Virus record (IMG/VR): IMGVR_UViG_3300021254_000025
Coordinates: 44,944 to 108,943 of that record
Source of the DNA: a virus
Taxonomy: Duplodnaviria; Caudoviricetes
Strand: one strand, 5' to 3'
Length of the DNA stretch: 64,000 bases
A program made the position numbers and the translations under genes. Below are positions 1 through 38,100 of the stretch, piece by piece. Position 1 is the stretch's first letter. Each line of letters begins with the position of its first letter. The notes under the pieces were generated by a model. It was not told the origin of the DNA. It did not search any database and saw only the letters and a list, made by a program, of their open reading frames with translations.

Positions 1-3000
1 ATCAAATATAAAGATGATAATGGAAAACTACTTCCTACAGAAGAAATTAAAAAGAATATTGCAGAAGAAATTGAACGTTCAGGTGGAAAAATTTTTGCAA
101 ACAAAACAATGAAAGATGCTCAAGGCGGAATCCACTGGATGTCCAGACAAGCATCGCAGATTCTTGGTAATTCTCCGGAATTTGTCGAAATGACAACACG
201 AGCATTTTTAGACGAGTATGCCCGTGTTGGAACAATGCAGGGAGCTCTTGATACCGTCTTTGCTGGTAACTCAGAAATGAGAGATTTAATATTAGCAACA
301 AACGGTGCTGTCATGGGAGATAAGCGCATTCAGGACGAAATACAAGGATTCCGTCTTGGAATGCTTACGAGAATTTCGCAAGGAGATACAATTTTACCTA
401 GATCCTTAGAAACTTCCAGGGCAATGGCTCAACCATATTTCTTTAATGCAATTATATCTGGATTAAAAAACATAAACGAAAGCGGCACAGGCATAATTAA
501 AGACGGAGAAACAAAATCATATTACGATACACTGTACTCTCAAATGTCTGAAGACCAAAGAAAAACACTTGGTTTGCTGACTATGGATGATGACGAAATT
601 GCTTTTCAGAAGCTCATGGCTTCAGTTGTAGGAATTAGTCGGTATCCTGCAACGACACGTTCTGCAAGAGAAGTTAAAAATATATCTGTCGGAAACTCTC
701 AACGTGAAAAAGCAATTCAAAAGTATCTTTCAGATTCTGGTTTTGATCCGGATGCTTTTTATATTTCACCTTCATCTCCAGTTATGCAGCTTCTGCAAGA
801 CGCTGATTTCGATGGAGACGTCATGGATTTGATTGGTCTTGCATATACAGGTAAAAATAAAAAAGGCGAAAAAGTTGCAGCGGCAGAGATTTTGAAAAAA
901 GCTTATGATTTAGGTATAAAGAAAATAGACGAAAGAGGCCTTTCTCAAGCTGAAGCAGATAAAATAAAAGAAGAATTTAAACATAACGTCTTTGGTGCAG
1001 ATGATATTGATTTAAATAAAGGTATAGATGTTATGAAAGTACTCGTTCCAGCAATGCAGAATGGGTATTTTATGGGTGGTCCTGACGCAACTATTCGTAA
1101 CGCAATGCAAGTTCCTTGGGATTCAACTGTTTTAAAAGCTATGTCTGCTGCAGAATCACAATACAGTGTTAATTCTATTAGAAATAAGACTGGTATAGAA
1201 ATGGATACAACTCCGGAACAATTAGAAGTGTTATCAAAATACAGAGCATTTACGGAGTTTTTCCATATTGTCGATAAAAACAGAGATAAATATGGAAACG
1301 TATCCATTCCAAATTTAATCGAAAGCGCTAAAGGCAGCGATGGTTTGCTTGGCGCTAAATTCTGGTCAACCAATCTTCCGTTTAATACAATGTCTAGCAA
1401 TGTACGTTCTATGATGCTTTCTCGGTATTTTGCTAAACAAAGAGGCGTAGATATTAATAAAAATTATGACTGGAATTATATTTTTGATTCTGCGTTAGGG
1501 AAAAAGGATGAATCAACTGCTTTAGGTCGTATGCAATCTGCGTTACGTGATACTTGGATGGGATATTTAAATGCAGATTATCTTGCCATAGACGAAGAAA
1601 CAATTGCTAAATTAGGAGAATTGCGCTCTGCTGCAATTGATGAACAAGCAGCGTTAGTGAAAAATGAAAGAGATAGACAAGGTAAAGCGTTTAACGAAAA
1701 AGGATCAAATAGAGCAATAGCCGAAAGAGTAGTTAATAGATTAGGCGGCAAGGTTATTCAAAACGCATTGTCTGGTATGGCAATGTCCGCATCGCATATG
1801 CACGACGAAGGCGTAAATGATTCGATTTTCACAACATTAGAAGCAATGAAGTTACCAAACGTTGTCGGAGGTTTAGACTTTACAAAGTTATTATCTGCAA
1901 AAACAACTCCTAAAGCGTTTGAAGAAATGAGTGAACCCACTCAGAATACTAAACTTGCTAGACTTTTGGAGTCATTTAATTTGTTGACTGTAGATGAGAA
2001 AAAAAGAATGATTGACAATATGCCAAGACTTTCTTTTAGCTCATTGTCGAAATTTGCATATAATCCAGCAAACTTTATGGAAGACTTAATTACTGGACGT
2101 GAAAATAATTCAACGCTTGCTAGTACAGAAATTGGGCAAGCTGCACATACAGCAATTGAGCACTTTATGCAACTGCGAATGAATGCTTCAGCACCATTGT
2201 CAGAAGATCAGCTGAAAGCAGCACAAAAAGAAGCTCTTGATGTTTTTGACGAGTATCTTGGTTTAAAAAAGCAAGGAAAAGGATTTAAACTTCCTGCAGG
2301 AAGCAGAGGATTAACAGATGCTGAACGCCAAACGTTAAAAACAAGTGGAACAAACTTAAACGACAGATATTACGCTCTTCGTCAATTTTTAGGTGGAGAA
2401 GGATTATTAAGCATTTATCCAGAAAGCGATTGGCAAGTCGTTGGCATAGAATCAAGCGACGTAGGAAAAGGTCCAAAAACTGCTGCTGGAAATATGATAA
2501 TAACAGGTAAAGGGAAAAAATTAACAACAGATGAAGACGTAGGTATGACTGGTTCATACGACTTAAGATTCAGAAGCAGAAAAGATGACCAACGCGAAGT
2601 GATGGCAGATATTAAGAATTATTGGAAACCATCAGACGACGATTGGAAAAAATGGAGAGTACAGCAGGCTATTTATGATAGTCAACTTCAAAAAAATGGA
2701 GTAAACATTGGTGAAGTTGGCATTATAGAACCATACCAGAATCGAATTCGAAAAATGATTTTTTCTGATGCTGATTTAAATTTAAGTGATGATAATGTAT
2801 CTAGGTCGATTAATAGAATTCAACAACTTGCAAAAGAAAATACATCTATCGGAGACGTGCTTGATGCAGCTAAATTTCTCCGTGAAAACATGTTTGGAGA
2901 TATTAGGGAAAGTGTTGCAGATCAAATTGTTAACAGAAAAGGAAGTTCTAAAAGCGGAAAATTTAATACAGGAAGTATAACAGATGCTTTATGGTTGCAC

Positions 3001-6000
3001 GACAGATATAATGAAGCAATTGAAGCAGATGAAGAAATTCAAAGTTTTGTTAACAAAAGAACAAGAGAAAGAGATAAAAGGACTCCAGACGATGTAATAT
3101 GGAGATCAAAGTATAATCAAGCAAACTTACTTCTTGAGCAATCCAAACAAGAGGAAATTGCTGGTAATACAGCTCAGGCAAAGGACTTACAAGCTCGATA
3201 TGATGCAGCAATGAGCAATTTGGATCTTGGCCTTTCACAAGCAGTTGTGCTGGACACTGAAAACTTTGGAGAAGATATATTTAGGTCCATTGCAGGAAAC
3301 AGCGGAACAAAAGCCGGTCGAGCTTTAGTTGAATCTTATGATAAAGTACAGGAAAGATTTAATAATATTCGAAGAGATAAAGATTATTTATCAGAAAGAA
3401 TAGACGAACGAAACCAAGACATAGAAGATGCATCTGGTCGCATAAACAGTTTAAAAAGTCAAGAACGAGAACTCAAAGAAGAAAAAGATATATTAGATCG
3501 TATTCAAGGATATACTGATGCTATTAATTCCTCGGGTTTGACTACAAAAGAAAAAGGAATTGCTAAAAGAGAAAGAACAAAACTTCTCAACAGACATCCA
3601 GAATTAGCTTCTAGCGATGAATTCTTTACTATTAGCAGTGCTATAAAAGAAGGAAACGATAAACTTGCTGCTGAAAGACTTGAAACTGCAAGAGAAAAAA
3701 CAACATCCAGATTGCAAGCTACGCAAGATCTTAGAAAAAAACAAGAAGAGGAAATGGATTTAAAAGTTTCAGAAGTTGAAGCAATGACAAAAAATTTGGA
3801 TGCAGCTACTCAACAAGAGAAACTAAACGAACCATTTGTTCAACAGTATATTAAACAATTACAAGGATCTGCAACAGAACTTCTCGGAAATACATTCAAT
3901 TCTTTAACAGCGATGGTTGATAAAGAAGCCGCAAAGCCAATGGACTTAGCAAAAAATAGGCTTTCTTTTATTGAACAGATTAACAATGCTAAAGTCGACG
4001 CTAAAGATTTGTTTGAACGAGGACTTATAAGCGGAACAGAATTGACATCTCGGCTTTCTCAGGCAGAACATTTGTTAAGCAACGAATCCTTAAATCAGTT
4101 TGATCAAAATCAAATCGATGCTGCAAAATTAAAACTCGGAATAACTCAAGCATCGAAAGATGAAATATATAACAAGGGTTTACAAGAGCGTATTAATGTA
4201 TTAAATGCGCAAAAAGAGTTAAATGCAAGAAAAGCCGCGCAACAATTTAAAGAAGATCGTCTGACAAATCCTCATGCTCGTTTATCAGATTACAAAAAAC
4301 AAGTTGAAGATGAGTATAACAGTGAAGTAGAAAAAGTAACAGAACAGTATAAAAAAGATTTTGAATCACAAAACGATCTTCGTCAATTACAACAAGGCTA
4401 TGCAGTAAATCAGATTACTCGACGTGGCAATATGATGCGTATGAATCGCTTTGGCACTTCTAGAAATATTGCTACTCGTGCTTACAGCATCTATAATAAC
4501 GCTCTTACTCAAGCTGAAAATAGGAACGTTGAAGCGCAATCTAAGCTTCGAGCTTACGAAAAAGAAACTGCTGGATTAAAAGAAGGCGACAATGGTTACG
4601 CTGAAGCTCAGACTAACCTCGCGAAACTTAGAGAAGAAGCGCAAAGAGCAAGTCAGGATCTTTCTCAGCTTCAAAGTCCGTTTGGCAAAGCCAGTGCAAC
4701 TGCAGCTGTGTTTGGTCAAACAATTGAAAGAGTTGCAGCTCGTCTTGGTCGTCAACTTTTTCAAAAAGCTCTCCAAGAAACCAAGCGTTTTATAAAAGAA
4801 TTTGATGCTTCTATGAACGAAATACAGGCCATTACGCTTAAGTCAGATAGTGATATGGCTTCTGTTCGTTCTAATACAATTAATAAAGCTATTGGACTTC
4901 GTACTTCTGTTTCCAATGTTGCTAACACTGAAGCTGCTTTATATCGTCAAGGATTAAGCGATCAAGAAGTTTCAAATCGAACAGAATCTATCATTAAATT
5001 TGCTACAGTTACAAAACTAAACGTTACTGAAGCTACAAAGATTATTACAACTGCTCTTCAGAATGACCTGGTGCCTTCTGCAGAACAGGCAATGGACGCA
5101 CTTGTCGCGCTTGGTGATAGCGCTGCAACTACCGCCGCCGAAATTGGTAAAGGTATGCAAAAGGCTGCTGCATCTGCTAAAGTTGCAGGTGTATCTTATG
5201 CAGAATTAACTGCATTGCTCACTGTTGGTACTTCCGATACTCAGTTGAGCGGCACTCAGGTTGGTACGGCTTTGCAGACTGTCTTTACTCGTATGAGAAG
5301 AATTAGTCTTTCGGGCTGGACGGCAGATCAAAACGGTGAAAAAACAACTGCTTCAGATGCTGAAGCAGCATTAAAGTCTGTTGGTATAGATTTGTTTTCA
5401 GATAAGAACGGACAAAAGATGCGCACGGCATACGAAGTTTTAAGTGATCTTGCTGGTGTATGGGAAAAGTTGAGTGATGTTCAGAAATCCGTTGTTACAA
5501 ACGCTTTAGCTGGAACTAGACAGACAAATATCTTCTCAACATTAATGGAAGGTATGTCCGAAGACGGCGGCAAAAGGATAAAAGAATATCTTGACCTTGC
5601 TTCAAATAGCGGTGGAATAACACAATCAAAATATGAAATTGCTATGCAAAGTCTCGCCGCTTCTTTAGATACGCTTAAAAGTTCGTGGGATGCGGTTGTT
5701 GAAAGTTTTGTCAATAGCGGTGTTGTTACAGGAGCTCTTGATATTGTTTCAGGATTCCTTCAATTTGCGGCCGGATCGGATGCCTTTGAACAAGCAGGTG
5801 GCGTTATTGTCGGCACGTTAACAGCAATAGGTGGAGCAATTCTTGCATTAAAGTTGAAAATGCCAATCCTTGCTGGATTATCTGCTATTGTAGGATTAGT
5901 TGCAGGTATTGGTACTACAGGCGTATTAAAAACAATTTTCGGCGGCGGCTCCGTCGAAACAGATGAAGAAAGATTCGCCCGTGAAAGCGCTGCTGATCTT

Positions 6001-9000
6001 GCTAATGTAAATAATTATTATTCGAAGAGTATGTCTTCTTTAAATAATAGAAGAGATATTATAAGTGAAGCTCAAAAGAAATATGATGAATATTTAAAAG
6101 CAACCGAATCTGGAAATACAATATCAGAAAAAGATGCAAGAGCAAAGTTAATTTCTGCTATGAATGATTTAGGGAATGCCTTCCCTACCATTGCACCAGA
6201 AGTTAAAAATGCAACAACGAATCTTTCTGAGTTTTCTAGCGCTTTGACTAAGGCATCTGACGCTGCCGATGCCGAAGCAGCAAGAATACACAAAGAAACA
6301 GATGAAATGACCAAACAACATCAAGAAGTTTATGGACAACAAGAATACAATAAAAAGTTTGATGAAACTGTTATTGGTGGATTTGATTATGGTCATTTAG
6401 ATCGAGAAGCAATAAAATATTTATCCGAAGCTGGTGCAGACACAACATATTATGATGAAAATGGCGATTTACAATCTCATGAAATAATTGATAACTTTAG
6501 TACATCACAAAATATTTTTAGTGAAAGTAATAATCCAACGCTTGATAAAGCCACTGGTTTTGTTAATCTTTTTAATAAGAGTGACGTTGCTAAAAAAATC
6601 ATTGGATCATATTACAAAAACGATGAAACAATGTTATCTTTGCTTGGTACAGATCCTAAGAAAGTTAAAGATTTACAAGCTTCAGATCAAAGAATCATTG
6701 CAGCTGCTTACGATAGTTTTTGGAAAAATCGTTTTAAATTAGATTTTAGCAATGAAGAAACATATGATGCTCAGAGACGTACCTTTAATAATGATTATAT
6801 CAAAGAGTTGATTGGACAGTGGAATTTAAGCGATTTGGCAACAGACACTGTTAGTGAAAGTACTATACAAAATATTTTTACTGATAAATTTTTCAAGATG
6901 ATAACTGATGAAAACGGAGATATAAAAGATAAGTATTTCATTGGTGACTTATTGAATGTTTCCGCAATTTCAGCTGAAATTGACAACCTGAAGAAAAAAG
7001 GTTCAAATTATCTTCTTGAAGGATATACTCCTGAAGAGATAGCTCAATACAGAACATCTGTTGATAACGCTGTTGATGCTTCATTAATTGATTTAAGAAA
7101 GAAAAGACCAATCAATCAACAAAGAGAAGATTTAATTGCTGCTGTGTCTACAGCAACAAATATGTCAGAACTTAAGAAATCCTACGAAGAAAATGACAGA
7201 GCTCAAGAGTTTGCTAATGTTCTTGCGAATTCTCCTGAACTGTTATCTGCTTATGTGATGGCAACAGGCGAAAATCCTTCAATCACTTGGGAACAGTTTC
7301 AAGATATTGCAAGTAAAGCAAAGATCGGATATTCACAACCTGTAGATATTGTAAAAACAGCAATGAGCGCAATGGAAGCTGATAATGCATGGGCCTCTGA
7401 ATTTAAGAATGATGATGTATTTGAAGTAGTATATAAAAATATGCAAAATATATTCGGTGATATGACCGATGAGATATTAAAAGCATATGAAAATGGCGAA
7501 GTTTCTGAAGAGATTGAGAAATACATCAATCAGTCAATCAGCAAAAATTCATTAAAACCAGATACTGGATTGACGCAATACACAAAGAAAGAAATCGCAG
7601 ATCTTGCCGATAAAGCAATGTCAAGTGATTATAAGTCTTTGGCTGAATATGCTCAAGCAAATAATTGGACTAAAAGTCAGTATGATGCTGTTAATAGTAT
7701 TTATGGCGCTGAAATTGATAGATATAAAAATATGACAGAAGCACAGCGGACTGATATCGAAGGACTCAATCTTAAGAGAGACTTTGATGTTAAGATTGCT
7801 GTTGCTGGAATCGACGATCTTGAAAGTGCTAATAAAGTTCTTCAAGGAACAACTCAGTTAATTGAGAACCTTAAAAAGGGCGGACAATTTGAGATTAAAG
7901 CTAAGCTTCAAATGGAGTCTGATAATTATAATTTTGAACAGCAAGTAGCTATGCTTCAAAATGGAACTTCGGAAGAACAAATGAATGCTTTAATGAGCCT
8001 GAATCCAGGATGGAGTAAAGCTCGTATAGAAGCAAATATGACAGAAGCTAGAGCTAATGCAGATAGAGCAATTCAAGATCAAAGAGAACAAACGGCTGGA
8101 CGGCTCACCCAACTTGCAAAAACGATGGGTGTTGATTACGCACAACAAGAAGCTGCAAAAATGGGATATAAAACAAAAACAAATCCTATTTTAGTTAAAG
8201 ATGCGTTAGAAGAAATAAACAAATATGCCATTTATCAACCGTATCAATACGATGAAACAACAGGAGCATTATATTGGACGAGTAAAGATACTGGACAACG
8301 TTATGCAGCAACACCTGAGTTTCAAAACTGGTTTGACAGAATGGCGTTTGGAGAATTTGAACCAATTGGCACTACACAAGATATTGACAGAGAAAACCTT
8401 GCCTATGGTTTACAGCGTTCGAAAACTCCATATGAGATTGAACAAGCTCAAAGAGTAATTCTCAGCGGTGATACTAACAGGATTGATGAGTTAAGAAAAG
8501 GCAATAACGAGCTTTACCAACAAGCGTTTAATGGATTAACTCAAAATCAAAAGGATTATCTTGCAATACAAGATGAATATAACTCTATCATGAACCATTA
8601 CGGTGGCAGTACAGATTATTTACCAGGAGATCAAGAAAAGATAAACAGATATAATGCTATGCAAACTGCTGCATATGCAGACTTTGGATATAAAACAAGA
8701 GACGAGATTTATAATGCAGCGTCCTTATATAATCCAATAACTAATCCACAATTCTACAACGATTATGCTGCTGTTGTTGGTTCTGATATTGCAGAAAGAA
8801 CAAAAGATCAAAACTATACATTAACGGCGCCCGAAGAAAGCTATGCAACACTTCGCATGCAAAGGTATGCTCAAGGATATGATGGAATAACTCAGATAGA
8901 TAAAATTCAAGGCGCTTATGATATGATTCAATCTATAGAAGATGGAACATATCAAGATAAATACGGTAAAGCCAGCGAAGATATGAAAAAAGACTTCACA

Positions 9001-12000
9001 AGTGCTGCGACAGGGCTTGATGAATTAATTGATGCTTATCTTTCTCTTGATAAAAATGCTGTTGATTATGCTGAAAAAGAAGCAATAATCAAAGATAGAT
9101 TAACAGATACAAAAGCTGCTTTAAAGACAGCTGCTGTTGAAGCAAAAGGATATGGCGAAGCAAATTCAAAAGCTGCGAAATCAATGGGTGAGCTGGCAAA
9201 AGGCGGCCTCGCCCAAAAGAAAGAAATTGCACAGTTAACAAAACAAGCAAAAGATTATCAAGATGCTATTACAGCAGCTCAGAAAAGCACTGGCAAAACC
9301 GGTAAACAGATAGCAAAAGATCAAGTTGCCGTAAAACAATTTGGTAAAATCGGTTTTGATAAGTCAGACATAGAACAATGGACAAAAGAAGAAGCAACTG
9401 AATATTCAAAGTTGCTTGAAGATTCTATTCAAGAAAACTTTGGAACAGAAATGCTCCAACCTTTAGTGCAACAAGCACTGGACGAAATTAATGCTCAACC
9501 ATTTGAAGTTCGTCCAAAAATTAATATGATTACCGATCCACAAACAGGAGATTTGGATTTCAGTCAGTTGGCGGCTGTTGTGGCACAATATAATGAATCG
9601 TTAGCAGCCGCTTTAGAAATTTTCAACGGAATATTGGCAGAAGCACATGTTCGCGTTATAGCACAAAGTGATAAAGAAGGAAACGGTGATGTTAAAGTCG
9701 TTGCAGATTCTAGCACCTTTAAAACTGCAAGAGTTAAAGGCGGCGGACGTGGCGGATCGTATAATAATAAAGGTGGCGGAGGCGGCGGAGGTGGCGGTAA
9801 ATCCGCAACCGATAAGCTTCTTGAAAAACAGAAGCAACGCATCTCCGAAATTGAGCATCAATCCAAAATGCTTGAGATCCAGGAAAAGTATCTTGATTTT
9901 ACTAACGATTATGATAATTATGGCAGCAATATCGATCAACAGATTGCCAACCAGGAAAGATTAAGAAGCGCATACGCTCAAAGCATCCAGGAGCTTAAGA
10001 ACCAGCTCGCCACACTGGAGAGAGGTTCTGACGACTGGAACAAAGCTAATGAGCAGTTAATGCAATACGAAGAAAATCTTGAAAATATCAAGAACACGAT
10101 AAATGATCTTGGCGCTAAACGTATTACCATTGTTGAGCAGAAACAAGAAAACGAAGATAAGCGTGGCAGCCATAACCTTAACATGCTTTCCAAGATGGCC
10201 GCAAGATATCAGAAGAGCGGTCAATTTGAAAGTTACGAAGGTATTATGGAGCAAACCATCGAAGAAACCCGTAAACAGATTCATCTGAACGATAAACAAA
10301 TTACAGAATGGGAAAACCTGCTCAAAACATTCACAGAGAACTCTGACAGCTGGATTCAAACAAGAGACAAGATCTGGGCAATGAGAGAAGAGAATGCTGA
10401 ACTTCAAAATCAGATGGCTTCTGATCTTATTGATTTACAGGAAGCTCGAATCTCACAGATCGCTGAAGATCTTCAGAATCAGAAAGCGCCTCTTGAGCAT
10501 AGAGCAAATATGCTTGATACTTATGGGCAGATGTATGAATCTGTAAACGATTTTACAAAGTATCGCGGAACTCTTGAAGGTACGATTGATACCAATCGCC
10601 AGATGAAAGAGATGACCGATGCGGCTATTGCTCAAGTTAAGAAGCAGATCGATGGAATGAAGGAAAGCGATCCGGCACGACAGAGTGCTATTCAGACTCT
10701 GTACGAACTGGAAGAAGCAAGCGCTCAATACGAAGCTTCTATTCTTTCTAATCAGCAAGCTATTGAAGAGTCTTTGATCTCTGAACTTACTCAGGCGCAT
10801 CAGGACAGCGGCTCTATTCTTGAGCATGAACTGAAACTGTTAAGCGAAGCTGAAAAAGAATTTGTTCGTAATGATGACTTCGTCAATTACGAGAACATTC
10901 TTGAAGAAAAAGCTCGCAATGCTTCAGATCGGCTGAAAGACCAGCAGAATGCTCTTGAAGATTATCTTGCTTTACAGAATAGCGGTAAGATTACAGAGGG
11001 TGGCCAGCAATGGCGAGAACTCGAAGATACTATTCGTTCCACAAAAGAGAATGTTGCTTCTCTTAAGAATGAATGGCAGGAAGCATTACAAGCTATTGAG
11101 AAGGCTAAATTTACTAATCTGAAAGAAACCTTTGCTGAAACTTACGATCTCTCTCAGCACCAGCAAAAGCTTGTGCAGTATGATCAGACAAAGTATCAAA
11201 ACAATGGTCAGCTTACTAATTACGGTACTGCCCTTGAATGGGAAGGGAAAATCCTTGAAGATCAAAGAGACAGTATTCAGAATCACATCAAAGATTTAGA
11301 AGAACAGCTGAAAGAATCCAAAGAATTCCCGGAACTGTACAAAGAGATTACAAAAGAGATTATGACCTGGGAAGAAAAGCTTTCAGATACTAACAATAGG
11401 ATTGAAAAGAATACTGAGCTTATCGAGAAGAATCAAGATGCTATCCGTAAAGCTCGTATCGCTGTCGAAAACGAAGCTGATAAGGCTATTCGCGCTTGGA
11501 TTCAGAAGCAAAGAAATATGCTTTCTGCAACAGTAACAATGCAGAATAACATCTTTGCTGTTATTTCCAAGAACTATCAACAGCAATGGGCGCTGGAACA
11601 GAAGACTCTTGATAAGAAAAAGCAAACACTGAATGAAGAGAAAAATCTGATTAACGAAAGAGTCAACTTCCGTAAAAAGATGATGGATCAGGAAGCTAAG
11701 GATGAAGAGCTGGCTGAATACAGAAGGCAATTAGCTTTAATCAGCCAAGATACAACCAGAACAAGAGAAGCAAACGAACTCCGTCGTAAGATCCAGGAGA
11801 TGGAAAAGGAACAGGCAATGCAGAACGCCCAGGATGTTGCCAATGCAGAAATCCAATCCTTGAACGATCAGTCCAAGGCTATTGACGATTATGCGGCAAC
11901 ATATCAGGAGAATCTGACTGAACTGCTTTCCAATATCAATAACTTCAAAGATATTATCGATGGGTTATTAAGCGGATCGTTTGAAGACTTTGTAAATTGG

Positions 12001-13080
12001 AACGCTGAATATAACGAAGACTTTAAGAAGTCTTCGGATGAACAGCGTCAGCAATTGATTAACGGCTGGGAAGACACATGGTATACCATGCTTGGTCAGC
12101 TGAGAACCTATTGGGATCAAGTAGATGAATCCATGCAATCCAGAGATGGGTTCCTTGAACTGCTGAAAACTCAGGATGAATATCTTAAGCTTTCAGATAC
12201 AGGACGGGAAAGCTATTTGTATCGAGCCGGAGAATTATATGATTCCTTTACAGCTTCGATGATAGATGATGCTACATTTAGTGATAATCATGAGATTATT
12301 GATACAATAAACGATCTGAAGGACTGGACATTTAATGTAAATATTGCCGGTCTTGGAAACTATGACTTTGGTGGTACTATAAGCGATTATGTCTACAATA
12401 GAGACAGAAGTGTTATACCTTATGAGTATGACTCAGATTATAAGGGTGTTGGGTATGTTGCTCCGCCTCCTGCGCCTACTCCTGCTCCAACGTCATCTTC
12501 TGGCGGTGGAGGATCAGGCGGCGAAAGCAAACCTGCTGCTACGGCGCCGAAGGCTAAAAAATACAGGTATACTTATACGTTCGACGGTTCTCCTAAACAT
12601 GGTATAAATTTTGAAAGCGAACAAGCAGCAAGACAGGATGCATCCGCTCGAATCACTAATGATTATTCTGTTGCAAAGTCAAAAGGAAAAGGCATAATGG
12701 CAGCATCTGTACTATATGCAGCTGCTCTAGGTTCTCTGAAAATCGAAGCATATAAGAAAGGCGGCTTAGTCGATTATACAGGACTTGCTATGGTACACGG
12801 AACTCCGCAAAAACCGGAAGCATTCCTGAGCGATGAAGACAGGGCTAATATGAGAGCAATGCTCGATGCGTTCAATTACGTAAAAGCACCTACTATGACT
12901 CATATTGATCCTTCTATGTATGGAACCACAACAAACAATTACGGCGATGTTAACATTACGATTAACGAAGCTAAGATTGATAACGATCAGGATATTTCTG
13001 CTCTCGCACAGAAAATCGGTAAAGAATTTACTAAGGAATTGTCGAAGAGTGGCTTCAACACTGCGTCTTACGCGTGGTGA
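1..13080 (+). CDS. Giant tape-measure polyprotein (5'-truncated) with an RNAP-like catalytic region, a PD-(D/E)XK domain and a TP901-type tape-measure core
   Basis: Frame 1 is open from base 1 (IKYKDDNGK...), so the gene starts upstream of the window. TP901/PhageMin_Tail-like core at ~4790-5700 (EFDASMNEIQAIT...LGDSAATTAAEIGKGM...GTQVGTALQTVFTRM). Hydrophobic segment at ~5700-5940, long coiled coils, and C-terminal YKKGGLVDYTGLAMVHGT..PEAFL. Lies immediately upstream of Dit/Tal. Confidence 0.9.
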   Translation: MKYKDDNGKLLPTEEIKKNIAEEIERSGGKIFANKTMKDAQGGIHWMSRQASQILGNSPEFVEMTTRAFLDEYARVGTMQGALDTVFAGNSEMRDLILATNGAVMGDKRIQDEIQGFRLGMLTRISQGDTILPRSLETSRAMAQPYFFNAIISGLKNINESGTGIIKDGETKSYYDTLYSQMSEDQRKTLGLLTMDDDEIAFQKLMASVVGISRYPATTRSAREVKNISVGNSQREKAIQKYLSDSGFDPDAFYISPSSPVMQLLQDADFDGDVMDLIGLAYTGKNKKGEKVAAAEILKKAYDLGIKKIDERGLSQAEADKIKEEFKHNVFGADDIDLNKGIDVMKVLVPAMQNGYFMGGPDATIRNAMQVPWDSTVLKAMSAAESQYSVNSIRNKTGIEMDTTPEQLEVLSKYRAFTEFFHIVDKNRDKYGNVSIPNLIESAKGSDGLLGAKFWSTNLPFNTMSSNVRSMMLSRYFAKQRGVDINKNYDWNYIFDSALGKKDESTALGRMQSALRDTWMGYLNADYLAIDEETIAKLGELRSAAIDEQAALVKNERDRQGKAFNEKGSNRAIAERVVNRLGGKVIQNALSGMAMSASHMHDEGVNDSIFTTLEAMKLPNVVGGLDFTKLLSAKTTPKAFEEMSEPTQNTKLARLLESFNLLTVDEKKRMIDNMPRLSFSSLSKFAYNPANFMEDLITGRENNSTLASTEIGQAAHTAIEHFMQLRMNASAPLSEDQLKAAQKEALDVFDEYLGLKKQGKGFKLPAGSRGLTDAERQTLKTSGTNLNDRYYALRQFLGGEGLLSIYPESDWQVVGIESSDVGKGPKTAAGNMIITGKGKKLTTDEDVGMTGSYDLRFRSRKDDQREVMADIKNYWKPSDDDWKKWRVQQAIYDSQLQKNGVNIGEVGIIEPYQNRIRKMIFSDADLNLSDDNVSRSINRIQQLAKENTSIGDVLDAAKFLRENMFGDIRESVADQIVNRKGSSKSGKFNTGSITDALWLHDRYNEAIEADEEIQSFVNKRTRERDKRTPDDVIWRSKYNQANLLLEQSKQEEIAGNTAQAKDLQARYDAAMSNLDLGLSQAVVLDTENFGEDIFRSIAGNSGTKAGRALVESYDKVQERFNNIRRDKDYLSERIDERNQDIEDASGRINSLKSQERELKEEKDILDRIQGYTDAINSSGLTTKEKGIAKRERTKLLNRHPELASSDEFFTISSAIKEGNDKLAAERLETAREKTTSRLQATQDLRKKQEEEMDLKVSEVEAMTKNLDAATQQEKLNEPFVQQYIKQLQGSATELLGNTFNSLTAMVDKEAAKPMDLAKNRLSFIEQINNAKVDAKDLFERGLISGTELTSRLSQAEHLLSNESLNQFDQNQIDAAKLKLGITQASKDEIYNKGLQERINVLNAQKELNARKAAQQFKEDRLTNPHARLSDYKKQVEDEYNSEVEKVTEQYKKDFESQNDLRQLQQGYAVNQITRRGNMMRMNRFGTSRNIATRAYSIYNNALTQAENRNVEAQSKLRAYEKETAGLKEGDNGYAEAQTNLAKLREEAQRASQDLSQLQSPFGKASATAAVFGQTIERVAARLGRQLFQKALQETKRFIKEFDASMNEIQAITLKSDSDMASVRSNTINKAIGLRTSVSNVANTEAALYRQGLSDQEVSNRTESIIKFATVTKLNVTEATKIITTALQNDLVPSAEQAMDALVALGDSAATTAAEIGKGMQKAAASAKVAGVSYAELTALLTVGTSDTQLSGTQVGTALQTVFTRMRRISLSGWTADQNGEKTTASDAEAALKSVGIDLFSDKNGQKMRTAYEVLSDLAGVWEKLSDVQKSVVTNALAGTRQTNIFSTLMEGMSEDGGKRIKEYLDLASNSGGITQSKYEIAMQSLAASLDTLKSSWDAVVESFVNSGVVTGALDIVSGFLQFAAGSDAFEQAGGVIVGTLTAIGGAILALKLKMPILAGLSAIVGLVAGIGTTGVLKTIFGGGSVETDEERFARESAADLANVNNYYSKSMSSLNNRRDIISEAQKKYDEYLKATESGNTISEKDARAKLISAMNDLGNAFPTIAPEVKNATTNLSEFSSALTKASDAADAEAARIHKETDEMTKQHQEVYGQQEYNKKFDETVIGGFDYGHLDREAIKYLSEAGADTTYYDENGDLQSHEIIDNFSTSQNIFSESNNPTLDKATGFVNLFNKSDVAKKIIGSYYKNDETMLSLLGTDPKKVKDLQASDQRIIAAAYDSFWKNRFKLDFSNEETYDAQRRTFNNDYIKELIGQWNLSDLATDTVSESTIQNIFTDKFFKMITDENGDIKDKYFIGDLLNVSAISAEIDNLKKKGSNYLLEGYTPEEIAQYRTSVDNAVDASLIDLRKKRPINQQREDLIAAVSTATNMSELKKSYEENDRAQEFANVLANSPELLSAYVMATGENPSITWEQFQDIASKAKIGYSQPVDIVKTAMSAMEADNAWASEFKNDDVFEVVYKNMQNIFGDMTDEILKAYENGEVSEEIEKYINQSISKNSLKPDTGLTQYTKKEIADLADKAMSSDYKSLAEYAQANNWTKSQYDAVNSIYGAEIDRYKNMTEAQRTDIEGLNLKRDFDVKIAVAGIDDLESANKVLQGTTQLIENLKKGGQFEIKAKLQMESDNYNFEQQVAMLQNGTSEEQMNALMSLNPGWSKARIEANMTEARANADRAIQDQREQTAGRLTQLAKTMGVDYAQQEAAKMGYKTKTNPILVKDALEEINKYAIYQPYQYDETTGALYWTSKDTGQRYAATPEFQNWFDRMAFGEFEPIGTTQDIDRENLAYGLQRSKTPYEIEQAQRVILSGDTNRIDELRKGNNELYQQAFNGLTQNQKDYLAIQDEYNSIMNHYGGSTDYLPGDQEKINRYNAMQTAAYADFGYKTRDEIYNAASLYNPITNPQFYNDYAAVVGSDIAERTKDQNYTLTAPEESYATLRMQRYAQGYDGITQIDKIQGAYDMIQSIEDGTYQDKYGKASEDMKKDFTSAATGLDELIDAYLSLDKNAVDYAEKEAIIKDRLTDTKAALKTAAVEAKGYGEANSKAAKSMGELAKGGLAQKKEIAQLTKQAKDYQDAITAAQKSTGKTGKQIAKDQVAVKQFGKIGFDKSDIEQWTKEEATEYSKLLEDSIQENFGTEMLQPLVQQALDEINAQPFEVRPKINMITDPQTGDLDFSQLAAVVAQYNESLAAALEIFNGILAEAHVRVIAQSDKEGNGDVKVVADSSTFKTARVKGGGRGGSYNNKGGGGGGGGGKSATDKLLEKQKQRISEIEHQSKMLEIQEKYLDFTNDYDNYGSNIDQQIANQERLRSAYAQSIQELKNQLATLERGSDDWNKANEQLMQYEENLENIKNTINDLGAKRITIVEQKQENEDKRGSHNLNMLSKMAARYQKSGQFESYEGIMEQTIEETRKQIHLNDKQITEWENLLKTFTENSDSWIQTRDKIWAMREENAELQNQMASDLIDLQEARISQIAEDLQNQKAPLEHRANMLDTYGQMYESVNDFTKYRGTLEGTIDTNRQMKEMTDAAIAQVKKQIDGMKESDPARQSAIQTLYELEEASAQYEASILSNQQAIEESLISELTQAHQDSGSILEHELKLLSEAEKEFVRNDDFVNYENILEEKARNASDRLKDQQNALEDYLALQNSGKITEGGQQWRELEDTIRSTKENVASLKNEWQEALQAIEKAKFTNLKETFAETYDLSQHQQKLVQYDQTKYQNNGQLTNYGTALEWEGKILEDQRDSIQNHIKDLEEQLKESKEFPELYKEITKEIMTWEEKLSDTNNRIEKNTELIEKNQDAIRKARIAVENEADKAIRAWIQKQRNMLSATVTMQNNIFAVISKNYQQQWALEQKTLDKKKQTLNEEKNLINERVNFRKKMMDQEAKDEELAEYRRQLALISQDTTRTREANELRRKIQEMEKEQAMQNAQDVANAEIQSLNDQSKAIDDYAATYQENLTELLSNINNFKDIIDGLLSGSFEDFVNWNAEYNEDFKKSSDEQRQQLINGWEDTWYTMLGQLRTYWDQVDESMQSRDGFLELLKTQDEYLKLSDTGRESYLYRAGELYDSFTASMIDDATFSDNHEIIDTINDLKDWTFNVNIAGLGNYDFGGTISDYVYNRDRSVIPYEYDSDYKGVGYVAPPPAPTPAPTSSSGGGGSGGESKPAATAPKAKKYRYTYTFDGSPKHGINFESEQAARQDASARITNDYSVAKSKGKGIMAASVLYAAALGSLKIEAYKKGGLVDYTGLAMVHGTPQKPEAFLSDEDRANMRAMLDAFNYVKAPTMTHIDPSMYGTTTNNYGDVNITINEAKIDNDQDISALAQKIGKEFTKELSKSGFNTASYAW
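631..835 (+). other. Two-barrel RNA polymerase (beta'-type DPBB) catalytic signature inside the tape-measure ORF
   Basis: GISRYPAT (RYP at 640-648) ... AFYISP ... LQDADFDGDVMDL (DADFDGD at 799-819) parallels RpoC LNRAPTL ... AIQLHP ... YNADFDGDQMAV. Confidence 0.75.
2020..2760 (+). other. PD-(D/E)XK (AddB/RecB-like) nuclease domain inside the tape-measure ORF
   Basis: Motifs in the canonical order: RLSFSSLSKF..NP, GQAAHTAIE, VVGIE, MTGSYDL, MADIKN, VQQAIY. Confidence 0.75.
9856..11450 (+). repeat. Five degenerate 105-111-aa repeats in the C-terminal part of the tape-measure protein
   Basis: Units begin HQSKML (9856), HNLNML (10171), HRANML (10498), HELKLL (10825) and HQQKLV (11158). Each has a (D/Q)(Y/F/L)xxY pattern followed by a coiled-coil hairpin. 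Confidence 0.65.
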
Positions 13081-13206: not shown

Positions 13207-14313
13207 ATGCAGTGTGAAAAACTTATACGCGGCGGATTTTCTTTTTGCGGCGTGGATATTGCAGATCTTGGATTAAACTACGCACCGGAAAAAGAGAATA
13301 CCTATGTTTACCGTCCGGCTGAAACGACTATTCATGAAGAAACATTTGACGGTCATGATGGCGGATATTTTTATGGAGCTTCTAAGCAAATTAAAGAATT
13401 TATTCTTCGTTGCTATTTCGAAGAAGAAGCTATTGACCGTGGACTTATGGAACGTATTTATAACTTATTCAGAATGGGTAAGTCTGGGAAGCTTATTTTC
13501 TCACGCAGGCCGTGGTGTTACTATTATGCCACAGTGACAAGCTCCCCCGCCCCTGAACTTGCAAACTATTTAAACGGTACGATTACCATCACTATGAAAT
13601 CTTACTATCCGTTTGCAAGAAGCGATCTTTCATATAGTCCGGCTGATCCTAATGATGGCGGCGACAATACAATGCACGATCTGTTAATGAGAAGTACAGC
13701 GTTATTCGATAGACAGGAATTTATGACTCCCCTATCCTATTCGAATTTGACGACAAGCACTTCTTTATTACTACACAATCCAGGAACTGAAAGAGCAGAC
13801 GTGTCTATTGTTGCTGCTGGAGATGTAGGAGCCGGAATTACAATTCGAAACAAGACAACGAATCAGGAATGCAGAATTGTAGCTATGGATAAAGCTCATA
13901 CATCTAACTACAACAAAACTGTACGCATCGATGGTGTGAGTGGCAAGACTTCGTTGATCGATGAAGAAGGGAATGTTTCCCCTGCATATTTCTATCATGA
14001 GTCAGGATTTATTCAACTTGCGCCTGCGTATCCTATGCTTCGCGAGCTTTATATTGAAGCAATTTCCAATACGACTGTTCAACTTTATAACCGCATCTAT
14101 ACAGATGTGATTGGAAGTTATATTTACATCGGTGGCTCTTGGAGAAAAATAGTCGATCAGCCGACTGAAAATACTATCGTATTGGATCAGCATGCTTCCA
14201 AAACAAGTAATTACAGCACAGTAATTACAAAGATGAATGAGATTGAAATCATTCCTGATAATTCAATGGATTTAACTCATCTGAGTTTTTCCTATAAACC
14301 TACGTTTGCGTAA
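13207..14313 (+). CDS. Distal tail protein (Dit-like)
   Basis: Follows the tape-measure gene. GFSFCG N-terminus, G.DGGYFYG, GKLIF...YYYA, M.SYYPFA, NPGT. RBS AAAGGAGG. Confidence 0.8.
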   Translation: MQCEKLIRGGFSFCGVDIADLGLNYAPEKENTYVYRPAETTIHEETFDGHDGGYFYGASKQIKEFILRCYFEEEAIDRGLMERIYNLFRMGKSGKLIFSRRPWCYYYATVTSSPAPELANYLNGTITITMKSYYPFARSDLSYSPADPNDGGDNTMHDLLMRSTALFDRQEFMTPLSYSNLTTSTSLLLHNPGTERADVSIVAAGDVGAGITIRNKTTNQECRIVAMDKAHTSNYNKTVRIDGVSGKTSLIDEEGNVSPAYFYHESGFIQLAPAYPMLRELYIEAISNTTVQLYNRIYTDVIGSYIYIGGSWRKIVDQPTENTIVLDQHASKTSNYSTVITKMNEIEIIPDNSMDLTHLSFSYKPTFA

Positions 14314-32142: not shown

Positions 32143-35100
32143 TTGAAATTGATTACTCCTGAACGGTTGGGTCGGTTTAAAACTGATCTTGAGAACACTT
32201 ATGGTCAACCTGGAAAGCCAGCTTTGCTGGATTCAAATGGTAAAGTTCTTGAATCAGAAATTCCCTCTTCAGCCTTTAATGTACTTGAATACGCTTCTGT
32301 TCAGGATTTTCCTGTAACCGGCGAAGCTGAAAAGCTGTATCTTGATACAACTGCGAAGGCTTTATATCACTGGGACGGAAATGGTTATGTGAGCATCTCC
32401 GATCAGGACAGTGTGAAATTCACATCACAGAGTTTAACGAATGAACAGAAAGCACAGGCCAGAACAAATATTGGTGCTTTGGATGCCAACGATCTTCCGG
32501 AAGATATCCTCAGATATTCTTCAATGGATCTTACAGATGAACAGAAGGTTCAGTCAAGGGCTAATATTGACGCCGCTTCTACTTCGAGTGTGAGTTCTTT
32601 AAGTTCAACGGTTTCCAGCATCGAAGCTTTAATCCAGACATACAGTGAAAACGTAGCGGATATCACAAAGATCGAAAATGGAATTAAGGTTCTTTACGCC
32701 GACGGAACAAGTAAAGAAATGGAACTTGAAACAGACTTCCCTATTAAGTCTGTTGTGTATGACGAAAACCATTATCTCCATTTCTACGATGCAAACAATA
32801 ACGATTTGTTTGACAATGTTTACATCGAAGGAGGCGGAGGCGGCGGTGGAAGCGTAGGCTCTGTTACCGTTGCCCGTATCACGGCTGAATCTTCAAGCTG
32901 TGTTTATGGTTCATCCTTCCCTATTCAGTTTACAATTACTGCACTGGATTCCAGTGGCGACGCTGCAACACTTAAAGGTTCTACATGGACTGTTGGTGGT
33001 GTTACCGTCGCCAGGAACATCCCAGTTGTCAACGGAAACAATACCTTTGATATCGGCCCGTATCTGAACGCAGGTGATAATACAATCAAGATTGTGGTTA
33101 CTGCAGATACAGGAGGAGACGCTGACGTCACTGCCTCTAAAACGTGGAGGGTCAACGCAGTCAACATGCGGTTCACATGGAATTATAATGATACGTCTAT
33201 CCATGAGTCCAGCTTTACTGATTCGTGGACAGTGTACGGTGAAATCGAAAAGACTTCGCATTCCAAGCTTGGTGATACAGAACTGCCTGTTACGGTGACA
33301 ACCAAGACAAACGCAACTCAATCTATCAGTATTCCAATGCAGCCGCACGGCGCATATGGTCTTGAAAGATGGGTGACTGCTTCCATCGGAGGTCAGCCTC
33401 AGTCTACACCTCATGAATATCACGAAGTAATCTTTGTGGAAAGCGGAAATCCTGCTCCTATTATCGCTGTATCAATGAAGGATACTACTCTCAAGAACAG
33501 CGACATTGAAATGGATCAGTACGATACAATTGAGATTCCTGTTGTTATCTATGATCCAATGCATATTCTTACAGATGCAACATTAACTGTCGACGGTGAA
33601 TACGCAGGTGAATGGGAAAACATTGATAGGTCTACCCATTTATGGGCATATACTCCTACCACAAGCGGTTCTCACACTCTTGCGATTACCTGTGGTGAAA
33701 CTGTCAAGACACTCGTGGTAAACGTTAACGAAGTAGCACTTGATATCGAAGAAGTGAGTGGATATACATTCCGGTTCAAGAGCTCTGAATTCGCCTCTAA
33801 TAAAGCGGTGAGAGAATGGGAATCCAATGGAATTACGGCATCCTTCTCAGATAACTTTGACTGGGTTAACGGTGGGCTGAAAACAGAAAGAGACGATAAA
33901 GGAAATCTCCAGCAATATTTCTGCATTAAATCCGGAACAAGAATGACTATTAACCATAAGTTGTTTGCAGTTGATCCTAAAGAGTCAGGAATGACCTTTA
34001 AGATTATTTATAAAGTAAGAAACTGCAGAAACTACGATGCTTTGGTTGGTCATTGTTTCTCGGAAGTCGGCATCAGGATGAACGCCCACAGCGCTACATT
34101 CAATTCTTCCGGTACGACAATTAATGTTCCGTATGGCGAAGATGAATATATCGAGCTGGAATTCGATGTTTATCCTTCCAATAACTATCATTATATGATG
34201 GCATGGATTGACGGTGTAATTACCTCCTGCAGAGTATATGATGCGAATGACAACTTTGTGCAGAATTACGAAACAAGGGAAAACATCGTCTTAGGTTCTG
34301 ATGACTGTGATGTTTATATCTATATGGTTAAGACCTATCCGATGCTTATTGATCGTGACGGTCATATTGACAACTTTATTATGGACGCACCGAACGCTTC
34401 AGAAATGGCAAAGCGTTATTCTCGTAACGATATCCTGAACGAAGGCGGAGACATCGACTATGAGAAGCTTGTCGATAAGAATCCAGACTGCCGTGTATGG
34501 TTATATGATATTCCGTATTTAACCAACGATAAAAGCGATAAGGTTGGCGGCTGTAAGTTCAATCAGTTCTGGAAGAACGGCAGCCAATATTACCAGATGT
34601 CCGGTGTAGGTAAGATGTCTGTTCAAGGTACCTCGTCTGTAAACTACATCAGAGGTGCTGCTAATACAGACATTAACTTCACGTCTCTTACAGATGGTAA
34701 TGATGTTAATCTTTTAGCTGGTGCCGTGAAAGATGATACCTATGGCGGAAACTGGTTTATTGAAGACGAAGAAAACCAGGGCCATGCTAAGGTTTTTGTT
34801 GTGGACGAAAACACTGAACTTACAGTGGATTGTGTTCCCATTGAAAGAGATTCCAACAGGAATGTAACAAAGTATGTTAAAGCTGTTGGTATGAAGCTGA
34901 ATGACGACTCGTGCCCGATTAGTTATGCCAATACAAAAGTTAACTTTGCTTCCTGTGAACAAGTTAACAACATGTGCAATGCTAAATGGTATCAGATGTA
35001 TAATCCGTATCCAAGCTTAACAGCACGGGATTGCATGGAATTCAACATGGGTGTCCAGTTTATCAAAGACAGCGGCGAAGTTCCTGATGACAGCCACTTT

Positions 35101-38100
35101 GTTCTTTGGGGAGACAATAAGTACCATATGTATTCTATTGCAAATATGGGAAACTCTAAGAAAAACGTCCATATTTTCCATGACTTATCCAATCCTAAAG
35201 AAGTCTGTATCGAAGTTAACGACAACGACAAAGACCAAATGAGAATGGTCAGCGATGACTTAAGCGAAGAAGATTGGTCTGGTAAAAAGTTCTTTGGTAT
35301 GCGTTATCCGGATACGAAGAATCCTTCACAGGAAGTTCGAGATGCATGGCAACGGCTCGTAACATGGATGGCTACCAACAATCCTAATGCTCATACGGAT
35401 GAGTTGTTACCGGAACCTGAAACATATGCCAACTATACTTTCCGTGGACATGATCGTCCAGGAACACAGGTTCTGCGTGGCGTTACTGTAACTCAATATG
35501 CAGGAACGTACACTCACGATACATTTGAACGCAGAATTGCAAAGATGCTTTCTGAATGTGAAGACTATATGGTTATGGATTCATTCGTGTATCACTTTTT
35601 ATATCTTGAACGGCATACAATGGTGGATAATGTCTCCAAGAACAACTTCTGGTCCTCTACTGACTTAATCCACTGGGATCTGTCCAAGGCATACGATATG
35701 GATACCTCTGACGGAAACAACAACCAGGGCCAGATGGTCTTCGATTATGGTAATGAGTACAACGATGATATCGGTGGCATGAAGGTTTTCAATGGTTCTG
35801 ACGCTGTATGGTTTGTGTTTGTCGCAAATCTTTATGAAGCATGTCAGGCTATGTTTATTAACCGTGAATCTGCCGGTGCATGGTCTGCTACCGCTTATCA
35901 TAATTTCTTACTGCAAGAACAACAGAAAGTTCCTGAAAGGTGTTGGGTGCAGTGCTACTGGTATGATTATCTTCGTACCTACGAGAATAATATTTCTGCA
36001 GAATGGATGACCTTCCTTGACGGCGGTCAGAAATCTCACCAGAGAAAGCACTATGAATACTTTGAAGAGTTATATGATTCTTCCAAGTATCGTGGAGCTG
36101 CTTCCACTTCCCAGAACGTTAACTTCCGTGCTTATACACCTAACACATGGAACAACTATGTCACAAAGGCAACAGGTGCATCTATGCGATCTTCGCCTAA
36201 CGCATCCGGAACTTTAATTCAAACTATTCCTGTCAATACACTGGTAACAGTGTCCAGAATTGCAGACGACTGGCGTGTTGTTACTTATAATAACAGAACT
36301 GGTTATGTTCTCAGATCTGAACTTGGAGGCGTTGAGCCTAGCGGAACACTTACCGTTACAATGTATAACAAGATGTATATCTCTGTTAACGTTGGTACTA
36401 CAGCATGGGCTCCAATCAAGGCTGAAAAGAATGTTCCTATGACAATTGAATTCTCGAATGGCGGATTGTTAAACAACACATTGATTAACATTAATACTGC
36501 GTCGATGATTCAAGCTATTAGTGGTATGGAACACTTATATACAGATACTTGTGTTTTCTCAGCTGCGACAAGATTAAGGGAACTGTCTCTTGGTTCAAAC
36601 GATATTGGATATGAGAATACTTTCTTAAAGAACCTGTCCCTTGATAACAACACCATGCTTGAACGACTGTATGTGCAGAATCTTCCCAATGCTAATTCGG
36701 CTCTGGATTTAACAAGCTGTTTGTCTTTAACAACTCTTGATGCAACAGGGTCTGGATTTACAGCATATTCATTTGCAGATGGCGGTCTGTTATCCAGTGC
36801 TATTCTTAATAGGCCTACTTCTTTAAGCCTTCTGAATCTTGCATATCTTGAAGATGAGAACTTTGCTATTACAGACTATTCCGGGTTGATTTCATTTAGA
36901 TATGAAAATACTCCCGGAATCGATTCTTATATGATTGCAAGTGCAGCACAGAATCTTCAGATTGTTCGTTTAATCGGCATTAACTGGGTTATGCCGAATG
37001 CAAATATGCTGAACAGAATGCTTCGGCTGCAAGGCTTAAACGAAAGCAACCATACTATCGATCAGTCTGTCCTTGCCGGCGAAGCTTATGCCCCGTCTAT
37101 GAGACAAAGAAATCTGAATGAATATGGTGTGGCATGGCCTGACCTTGTTGTTACGTATGATAACATTCTTGAGGAATTCCAGATTACATTCTCTAATCCT
37201 GATGGAACTGCTATCAAAGACAGACTTGGTAACGACTACATCCAGTATGTGGATCGCGGTCAGACAATTGTCGATCCCGTGGAAAACGGAGATATTGATA
37301 CTCCTACAATGGAACCAACGGCACAGTATATTTACACATATACTGGATGGCAAAACATTTCCGGTGCTGTAATGGATAACAGAAATGTTATTGCATCTTA
37401 TTCAAGCGCTGTCAGAACGTATCGTGTGCGCTGGTTTGCTCAGACGGGCGTTCTCTTAAAGACCACCTATGCTGAGTATGGTTCTGAAGTAATCTATCAG
37501 GATGAGGATCATGTATTCCCTCCGACCAAAACAGACGAAGAAGAGAACCTTTACTTCTGGGTATTCCTCAACTGGGATAAGTCTACTGGATTCATTACTG
37601 AAGATGTAGATGTGTACGCAATTTGGGACCGTGCTACTATTCCGTCTGGCTCTGTCAATCTTAAAGATTTGTCTATTGCTCAGATTTACGGTATTGCAAA
37701 AACCTACAACTCTTCAAATTACTTCCATGACGAGGACTATGTTGACATTAAGGTTGGTAAAGACTTTAACTTCTCGAATGTACAGTCGGAAGTGCTTCTT
37801 GAAAATAAATATTTCGACGGCACCGAAATTGTAAAAAAAGAAAACATCAGACTGTTTGACGCCGATGCTCCAAGCTTTACAATTGCCATCGATTATGAAT
37901 TCACGGAAGCAACAACCAACGCAACGATGATCAGCTGCTGTGACTCTACCGGAAGCACTGAAGGTTTCAGAGTGTATTATTACTTAGCAGGAAACACCAA
38001 CGAAAACCAGAGTGTTCAGGTTCTTTGGGGTGATAAGACAGCTATTGTTGGACACGGATTAAACCGTGGTATCCTTGTCTTAAGACACCGTAAAGGATCA

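Follow-up and report, generated by a model that had tools for sequence, protein, structure and literature searches.

The window analyzed here comprises 64,000 nucleotides, namely the last 64 kb of the 108,943-bp virus record IMGVR_UViG_3300021254_000025 (Duplodnaviria; Caudoviricetes), which is 74% complete by CheckV estimate and carries no end repeats. It opens inside a giant open reading frame (ORF) for a tape-measure protein, the full gene for which begins 2,046 nucleotides upstream and encodes 5,041 amino acids (protein P0002), such that the window holds the 3′ part of the gene and a product of 4,359 amino acids (P0001). Within the N-terminal third of this virion structural protein, at residues ~1340 to 1650, we find a domain that, as read from its sequence, possesses a complete active site of the Cas4/RecB/AddB type and is entirely free of cysteine (Cys).

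The identity of the protein that carries this domain is indicated both by profile matches and by gene order. The ORF matches six tape-measure families of the PHROGs collection (best E value 6e-24) and includes a core recognized by the Pfam profile PhageMin_Tail (PF10145). Furthermore, upstream genes encode the terminase (TerL), the portal and a head-tail adaptor, and the tape-measure gene is directly followed by those for a distal tail protein (Dit) and a tail-associated (Tal-like) protein, the latter of which also scores 29.9 bits against the profile Prophage_tail, under the cut-off of 31.3. The nuclease domain is located between a region bearing the motif DFDGD and the PhageMin_Tail core, as had been proposed in a first-pass annotation of this DNA that was made without database searches.

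That annotation had assigned positions 2020 to 2760 to a PD-(D/E)XK nuclease domain on the strength of six motifs in canonical order. All six are present in the order given, in frame +1, between nucleotides 2026 and 2676 (Table 1), where the names motif II, III and IV are applied to those elements that we take to bear them in PD-(D/E)XK enzymes. The catalytic core spans 2026 to 2757, and the folded domain is somewhat larger than had been proposed (~1951 to 2895). When the 333 residues of this region are isolated and compared with Pfam, the profile PDDEXK_1 is matched with 25.4 bits (E 1.6e-5), above its cut-off of 22 bits, whereas the entire 4,359-residue window product attains 18.2 bits (E 0.0025) and stays under this cut-off. 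A six-frame search of the 109-kb record with PF12705 yields a single match (24.3 bits) at G000:C1:46969-47622, equivalent to window positions 2026 to 2679, and no second PDDEXK_1 match anywhere in the record. The profile Cas_Cas4 (PF01930) reaches 14.6 bits (E 0.036) on the domain, with a cut-off of 22.7 bits.

The four-cysteine iron-sulfur (Fe-S) cluster of Cas4 proper is absent, as had been noted earlier, there being no Cys among the 340 residues of the domain stretch (P0001 residues 634 to 973). The N of the RLSFSSL..F..NP motif presumably occupies the site of the first Fe-S cysteine in Cas4 and AddB. A comparison of the nuclease sequence with PDB chains, made with the single sequence or with a nine-sequence profile, gives no significant match, the best hits being unrelated enzymes at E values of 0.05 to 0.08. 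A 90-residue ORF on the minus strand (2285 to 2557) was considered as a gene and rejected because it lies wholly within the conserved coding frame of the nuclease domain.

More distant relationships are revealed by a predicted structure. An AlphaFold2 model of 340 residues (mf744a6abcebe), built from the nine-sequence alignment A1, has a mean predicted local distance difference test (pLDDT) score of 84.0 and a predicted template-modeling (pTM) score of 0.79, and its confident part corresponds to nucleotides ~1951 to 2895. The modeled secondary structure consists of a helix at residues 78 to 98, strands at 182 to 187, 226 to 230 and 237 to 242, a second helix at 250 to 269 and a final strand at 274 to 281. 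This alpha-beta-beta-beta-alpha-beta order, with helices that include GQAAHTAIEHF and WRVQQAIY and strands that include WQVVGI(E), (YD)LRFRS, EVMADI(K) and IGEVGIIE, is that of a classical PD-(D/E)XK core, and the predicted fold is restriction-endonuclease-like.

Structural comparison with Foldseek returns four PDB matches at E values of 1e-3 or lower, all of them chains of ACE1, an Argonaute-associated enzyme of the Cas4 family. These are followed by AdnA/AdnB, AddB, the putative exonuclease 3l0a, RecE, Dna2 and Cas4. Against BFVD there are 50 matches at E values of 1e-3 or lower, and those with names are phage or viral proteins of the PD-(D/E)XK, Cas4-family, RecB-like or RecE-like kind, ~250 to 430 residues in length, with an intein-containing helicase as the sole exception. 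The AddB/RecB/Cas4-like fold that had been suggested from motifs is thus borne out by the Pfam match, the model and its structural neighbors, and we regard it as almost certain that a PD-(D/E)XK domain exists in this tape measure.

Homologues reveal that the active site has been retained. A word-indexed search of 5.8 billion proteins identified nine giant proteins of 5,041 to 6,925 residues (P0002 included), all with PF10145, and the eight others are 45 to 61% identical to P0002 over the nuclease region. A profile search run without filters on 1.84 billion cluster representatives gave 18 proteins at E values of 1e-3 or lower. Seven are giants (3,695 to 5,721 residues) in which the match always falls at residues ~1274 to 1681, and three are stand-alone proteins of 200 to 210 residues (P0019, P0023 and P0024) that score above the PDDEXK_1 cut-off. 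The remaining eight are short (84 to 479 residues) and match part of the profile, starting at residues 1 to 6 in seven cases and at residue 29 in one, and we infer that they are gene fragments.

In the nine close homologues, which are 46 to 64% identical, the H and E of helix alpha1, the E of strand beta1, the D of motif II, the D-x-K of motif III and the QQ..Y of motif IV are all invariant. A wider alignment of ten sequences, comprising four close homologues, three distant giants (P0012, P0013 and P0015) and the three stand-alone proteins, retains S, G..H, the beta1 E, G..D, D-x-K and Q without exception, and the motif IV Y in nine of the ten. Among giant homologues, the motif II D, motif III DxK and motif IV Q are unchanged in all 12 that were aligned, which agrees with the earlier claim that the catalytic D and DxK are intact. 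The first-pass annotation had called for a hidden Markov model scan and a structure prediction, and had named a different fold or unconserved catalytic residues as grounds for abandoning the assignment; the scan exceeds the Pfam cut-off, the fold is restriction-endonuclease-like, and neither of those outcomes was observed. Judging from these residues, the domain is very probably catalytically active.

Among all close members of the clade, the position of the nuclease does not vary. This clade is small and known from metagenomes only, and the architecture that joins an RNA polymerase (RNAP)-like region, a nuclease and a ruler is restricted to the handful of phages within it, represented by contigs of ~100 to 150 kb. 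A tblastn search of 50,697 phage records gave no match for the nuclease, and pattern scans of IMG/VR and of GTDB species genomes found no relative. The same kind of scan of JGI metagenomes found one locus, L004.

Table 1. Coordinates of the nuclease domain, its motifs and other features of the window
Feature	Window position	Strand	Basis or remark
Whole folded nuclease domain as modeled, flanking helices included	1951..2895	+	Model residues 22-336
PD-(D/E)XK catalytic core, S-x-S motif to strand beta5	2026..2757	+	Pfam PDDEXK_1, six-frame PF12705 match, secondary-structure order
RLSFSSL..F..NP motif (N-terminal)	2026..2076	+	Second S invariant in 10/10 aligned; no Cys
Helix alpha1 motif GQAAHTAIEHF	2134..2166	+	G and H invariant; E replaced by Q in P0015
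Strand beta1 VVGIESS	2437..2457	+	E invariant; model strand 182-187
Lys/Gly-rich insert of 33 residues, beta1-beta2	2452..2550	+	Shortened in P0012 and P0013; absent in three stand-alone relatives
Motif II GSYDLRF, strand beta2	2551..2571	+	D invariant
Motif III MADIKNY, strand beta3	2602..2622	+	D-x-K invariant
Motif IV VQQAIY (QxxxY, helix after beta3)	2659..2676	+	Q invariant; Y replaced by H in P0015
C-terminal part of conserved N-terminal module (P0002 residues 1-1310)	1..1890	+	RNAP-like signature
DADFDGD motif (P0002 residues 949-955), candidate metal-binding signature of two-barrel RNAPs	799..819	+	Located in translation
Giant tape-measure ORF	1..13080	+	5′-open in window; full gene G000:C1:42898-58023, 5,041 residues (P0002)
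PhageMin_Tail (PF10145) tape-measure core	4894..5514	+	P0001 residues 1632-1838, Pfam E 1.3e-29
Hydrophobic Gly/Ala/Ile/Leu-rich segment, start	5797..5835	+	Read from tape-measure translation
Distal tail protein (Dit) gene	13207..14313	+	Directly 3′ of tape measure; Pfam Sipho_tail E 5e-7, 30.4 bits
Tail-associated (Tal-like) protein, 2,019 residues	14319..20378	+	Pfam YOMG_N 28.9 bits (cut-off 27)

In fold and in motifs (S-x-S, G..H, E, D, DxK and QxxxY), the domain resembles the stand-alone Cas4-, RecB- and RecE-like exonucleases of the PDDEXK_1 type found in phages, which are usually encoded among genes for replication and recombination. In contrast to these free enzymes of 200 to 400 residues, it is an internal domain of a virion protein, and it carries extra flanking helices and a Lys/Gly-rich insert between strands beta1 and beta2 that may form a nucleic-acid-binding hairpin. 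The embedded nuclease probably derives from a stand-alone phage exonuclease of this type.

The nuclease domains of AdnAB and AddB also share the core motifs and are matched by Foldseek at E values of 1.2e-3 to 7.9e-3, and Cas4 proper has the motifs in common as well, although its chains are weaker structural matches (E 0.06 to 0.17). Unlike Cas4, AddB and AdnAB, the tape-measure domain has neither an Fe-S cluster nor a CRISPR or helicase context. The best match among solved structures is ACE1 (PDB 9iac/9iab), with an E value of 1.7e-5, a TM score of 0.44 (query) or 0.55 (target) and 12 to 13% sequence identity. ACE1 is described as a free single-stranded DNA (ssDNA) endonuclease that works with a pAgo defense protein (PMC12094033), and the phage-virion context of the domain reported here has no equivalent there.

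Directly upstream of the nuclease in all 12 giant homologues is a conserved N-terminal module that the first-pass annotation had read as RNAP-like. Its DFDGD residues (D951, F952, D953, G954 and D955; window nucleotides 805 to 819) are invariant in 11 of 11 homologues, among which the module as a whole has 181 invariant columns. Moreover, 27 of its 30 named neighbors in the ESM Atlas belong to the RdRP set of PF05183, with a score of 0.90 that is borderline. Other comparisons do not confirm this reading. An AlphaFold model of the module, made from 11 sequences, is poor (pLDDT 60.5, pTM 0.35), and the top PDB match of this poor model, the two-barrel RNAP QDE-1, is not significant (E 0.032, probability 0.18). 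Furthermore, the module matches no Pfam family, and its alignment by hhalign to P0025, a second polymerase candidate of this phage, or to the N-terminus of the Thermus phage protein gp96 has a probability of 1.7% or 0.1%, respectively. Thus the evidence for the RNAP assignment is suggestive, and we consider the module likely to be a two-barrel polymerase.

P0025 is a protein of 906 residues encoded upstream of the window (G000:C1:21259-23979, minus strand) and carries the motif GADYDGD. It scores 18.7 to 20.5 bits against the Pfam RdRP profile (PF05183), under the cut-off of 23.8, and its gene is the only place matched in a six-frame search with this profile. By BLAST, it has only the motif LQ.AD.DGD in common with the N-terminal module, and neither P0025 nor the RNAP-like region of the tape measure found a match in the tblastn search of phage records. 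The protein contains 11 Cys and is a candidate for a second, non-virion two-barrel RNAP, in keeping with the two-polymerase scheme of phage P23-45.

In that Thermus phage, gp96 is a tape measure of 5,002 residues with an N-terminal two-barrel RNAP whose DFDGD motif is at residues 779 to 783 (PMC10770324, Chaban et al. 2024). The same report places the gp96 RNAP in virions, still within the full-length protein, proposes that pre-early genes are transcribed by it at the tape-measure pore as the DNA enters, and assigns a second, non-virion RNAP, gp64, to a gene elsewhere in the genome (PMC10770324). P0002 resembles gp96 in its giant size (5,041 versus 5,002 residues), in the placement of DFDGD within the N-terminal ~1,000 residues (951 to 955 versus 779 to 783) and in the presence of another polymerase candidate elsewhere in the genome (P0025 with DYDGD here, gp64 there). 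In contrast, the two proteins have no sequence similarity detectable by BLAST or hhalign, there being no BLAST match between P0002 and gp96 below an E value of 0.1, and gp96 carries Peptidase_M23 as its only significant Pfam domain whereas P0002 has no peptidase match.

The earlier suggestion that a polyprotein of RNAP, nuclease and ruler had not been described must be divided accordingly. It does not hold for the fusion of RNAP and ruler because P23-45 gp96 has been published (PMC10770324). For the added nuclease it stands, in that our full-text literature search, which covered few subscription journals, found no nuclease domain described inside any tape-measure protein.

A further trait shared with gp96 is the absence of Cys. 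P0002 has none in 5,041 residues, where ~74 would be predicted from the 1.47% Cys content of the 60 further ORFs in the record that encode 150 residues or more, its giant homologues have zero to three, and gp96 has none in 5,002. We infer that this composition reflects a constraint imposed by unfolded passage through the tail tube and later refolding. Such a constraint on an ejected tape measure would also explain why a domain of the Cas4/AddB type is found here without an Fe-S cluster.

Several other features of the window deserve mention. In the tape measure, the hydrophobic segment rich in Gly, Ala, Ile and Leu (Table 1) would be suited to a membrane-spanning role, and a Pfam search of the window product reveals no peptidase match. 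The ruler part includes a run of nine glycines (KGGGRGGSYNNKGGGGGGGGGKS) at positions 9772 to 9798, and the consensus of the homologues has a G-run at the same place; homorepeats in tape measures have been linked to tail length in a 2026 paper (PMC13585406). A second very large ORF (32143 to 39204, plus strand; 2,353 residues, 25 Cys) matches SH3_3 and DUF6273, and its product is probably a tail fiber or cell-wall-binding protein. Finally, at ~50000 to 51100 the gene orientation changes from plus to minus and the sign of the GC skew flips, with the maximum of the cumulative skew near 50,000, which may mark a module boundary or a replication-related switch.

What might a nuclease do inside a tape measure? 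In the view set out for P23-45, tape measures leave the virion by ejection and provide the channel through which DNA passes (PMC10770324). In the neck of phage 80alpha, residues 1 to 37 of the tape measure sit alongside the tail completion protein and the end of the DNA, with the C-termini reaching Tal at the baseplate (PMC11661146). If this geometry applies here, then the tape-measure N-termini would lie in the part of the tail nearest the head, next to the end of the DNA, and the protein would exit the tail before the genome, with the polymerase-nuclease block leaving last and just ahead of the DNA. Because the N-terminus would lie beside the DNA end and the tape measure would precede the genome, the nuclease is expected to be ejected with it. 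By analogy with these systems, it is therefore probable that the nuclease enters the cell along with the leading part of the genome.

As the best overall explanation, we tentatively favor the view that the substrate of the nuclease is the entering phage DNA and not nucleic acid of the host. Once ejected, the domain would refold in or at the cytoplasm and remain tethered at the entry pore, with the RNAP-like module and the foremost end of the genome close by. There, as a putative Mg-dependent DNA nuclease, it could cut or resect the incoming end, and the resulting ssDNA might be used by the tethered polymerase, which could copy it or load on it, or else might serve as a recombinogenic end for circularization; an ssDNA template and help with circularization had also been suggested in the first-pass annotation. 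A more specific form of this proposal, which we judge to be unlikely, is a tethered machine in which the nuclease strips one strand of the first genome end and thereby offers the polymerase an ssDNA template at the pore. With such a template in place, pre-early transcription could start without promoter melting, at a time when the remainder of the genome has yet to leave the capsid.

Several observations weigh against a role of the nuclease on entering phage DNA. First, gp96 has no PDDEXK match in Pfam and no match to the nuclease profile of the P0002 family, and the word 'nuclease' does not occur in the main text of its description (PMC10770324). Second, the 5,796-residue tape measure P0054, the one further relative retrieved with the RNAP-like region as query, which shares 24% identity over 93% of the RNAP-like region and 37% in the ruler core, and which has EDFDGD at residue 903, PF10145 and no Cys, replaces residues 1270 to 1907 of P0002 (637 residues) with a stretch of 409 residues that matches neither the nuclease profile nor any Pfam family. 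P0054 thus represents a natural comparison lineage that lacks the nuclease, and with two lineages (gp96 and P0054) doing without it, the nuclease is dispensable for fusions of RNAP and tape measure in general. Third, ACE1, the closest solved fold, is an ssDNA endonuclease and not a resecting exonuclease, at least as it is described in PMC12094033. Fourth, the most distant homologue, P0015, has Q in place of the alpha1 E and H in place of the motif IV Y. A search for an annealing partner of the RecT or ERF kind was likewise negative, but with the record 74% complete this absence is uninformative. Because gp96 and P0054 have no nuclease domain, we view the nuclease as an accessory module of one clade that was inserted between a polymerase-like head and a ruler.

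Among the alternatives, the one that fares best holds that the ejected nuclease is a host-directed weapon that attacks the chromosome, plasmids or DNA-based defense intermediates, to shut the host down or blunt its defenses ahead of all phage gene expression. The domain belongs to a protein expected to be the first to enter the cell (PMC10770324). Its active site is complete and conserved, and confinement of an accessory module to a single clade is as expected of an arms-race add-on. A domain that stays within a pore-forming tape measure of 5,041 residues would nonetheless have little reach, nothing suggests that it is released by cleavage, and to our knowledge there are few copies of the tape measure per virion. 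We consider a weapon of this kind somewhat unlikely.

Alternatively, the domain might hold and protect DNA, binding the leading genome end in the neck or at entry and shielding it from exonucleases of the AddAB/RecBCD type, with catalysis being secondary. The fold matches would suit such a function, given that domains of the Cas4, AddB and RecB types belong to DNA-end enzymes, as would the location of the 80alpha tape-measure N-terminus beside DNA in the neck (PMC11661146). However, the domain is ~1,350 residues from the N-terminus and not at its tip, and all catalytic residues are kept in homologues down to ~30-45% identity and in the stand-alone relatives, which would be unexpected for a pure binder. 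A protective role is, in our view, rather improbable.

Its consistent position next to the RNAP-like module (12 of 12 giant homologues) could instead hint at a partner in RNA processing, cleaving nascent or host RNA in transcript release, 5′-end processing or decay of host mRNAs. PD-(D/E)XK endonucleases act in this manner in some viral polymerases, weak fold matches to DXO/Rai1 and to a bunyavirus cap-snatching endonuclease are seen (E 0.1 to 0.6), and transcription by the virion RNAP of P23-45 reportedly ends at a conserved motif of an unusual kind (PMC10770324). Yet all matches that reach significance, by fold or by profile, are with enzymes that act on DNA (ACE1, AdnAB, AddB and phage Cas4/RecB/RecE), and gp96 carries its polymerase without a nuclease, such that we find a role on RNA quite improbable.

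Even less probable is a function confined to assembly, in the producing cell or at head-tail joining, such as trimming the end of the DNA as it reaches down into the tail, with none after ejection. The tape-measure N-terminus and the DNA end do meet in the neck, at least in 80alpha (PMC11661146), but a Cys-free composition, which is common to gp96, fits transit and refolding better. In addition, a competent nuclease parked on a packaged DNA end would be hazardous, and we know of no precedent for one. Lastly, the notion that the motifs are a chance arrangement in a long, low-complexity coiled-coil protein, which could be read into the 18.2 bits for the entire window protein and into the absence of significant matches from the PDB sequence searches, is already refuted and retains negligible probability, since the isolated segment and the six-frame search exceed the cut-off and since there are a confident model, 50 BFVD and four PDB fold matches at E values of 1e-3 or lower, and invariant motifs.

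Before 2024, tape measures were seen as rulers that also form a channel and in some cases bear a cell-wall hydrolase. The work on P23-45 then showed that a polymerase can be part of them as well (PMC10770324). The protein described here represents a second lineage of giant tape measures with a polymerase-like head, unrelated in sequence to gp96, in low-GC phages known from metagenomes only, and its nuclease domain is the first case found of a nucleic-acid-cutting enzyme inside a tape measure. The absence of Cys that it has in common with gp96 may provide a simple sequence signature by which to recognize other enzyme cargo that unfolds to pass the tail. If the nuclease is indeed delivered, then an arriving genome end would first encounter enzymes of the phage itself, which both cleave and copy nucleic acid. 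This would bear on how infection by long-tailed phages begins, on how their DNA survives the end-directed exonucleases and defenses of the host, and possibly on how it is circularized.

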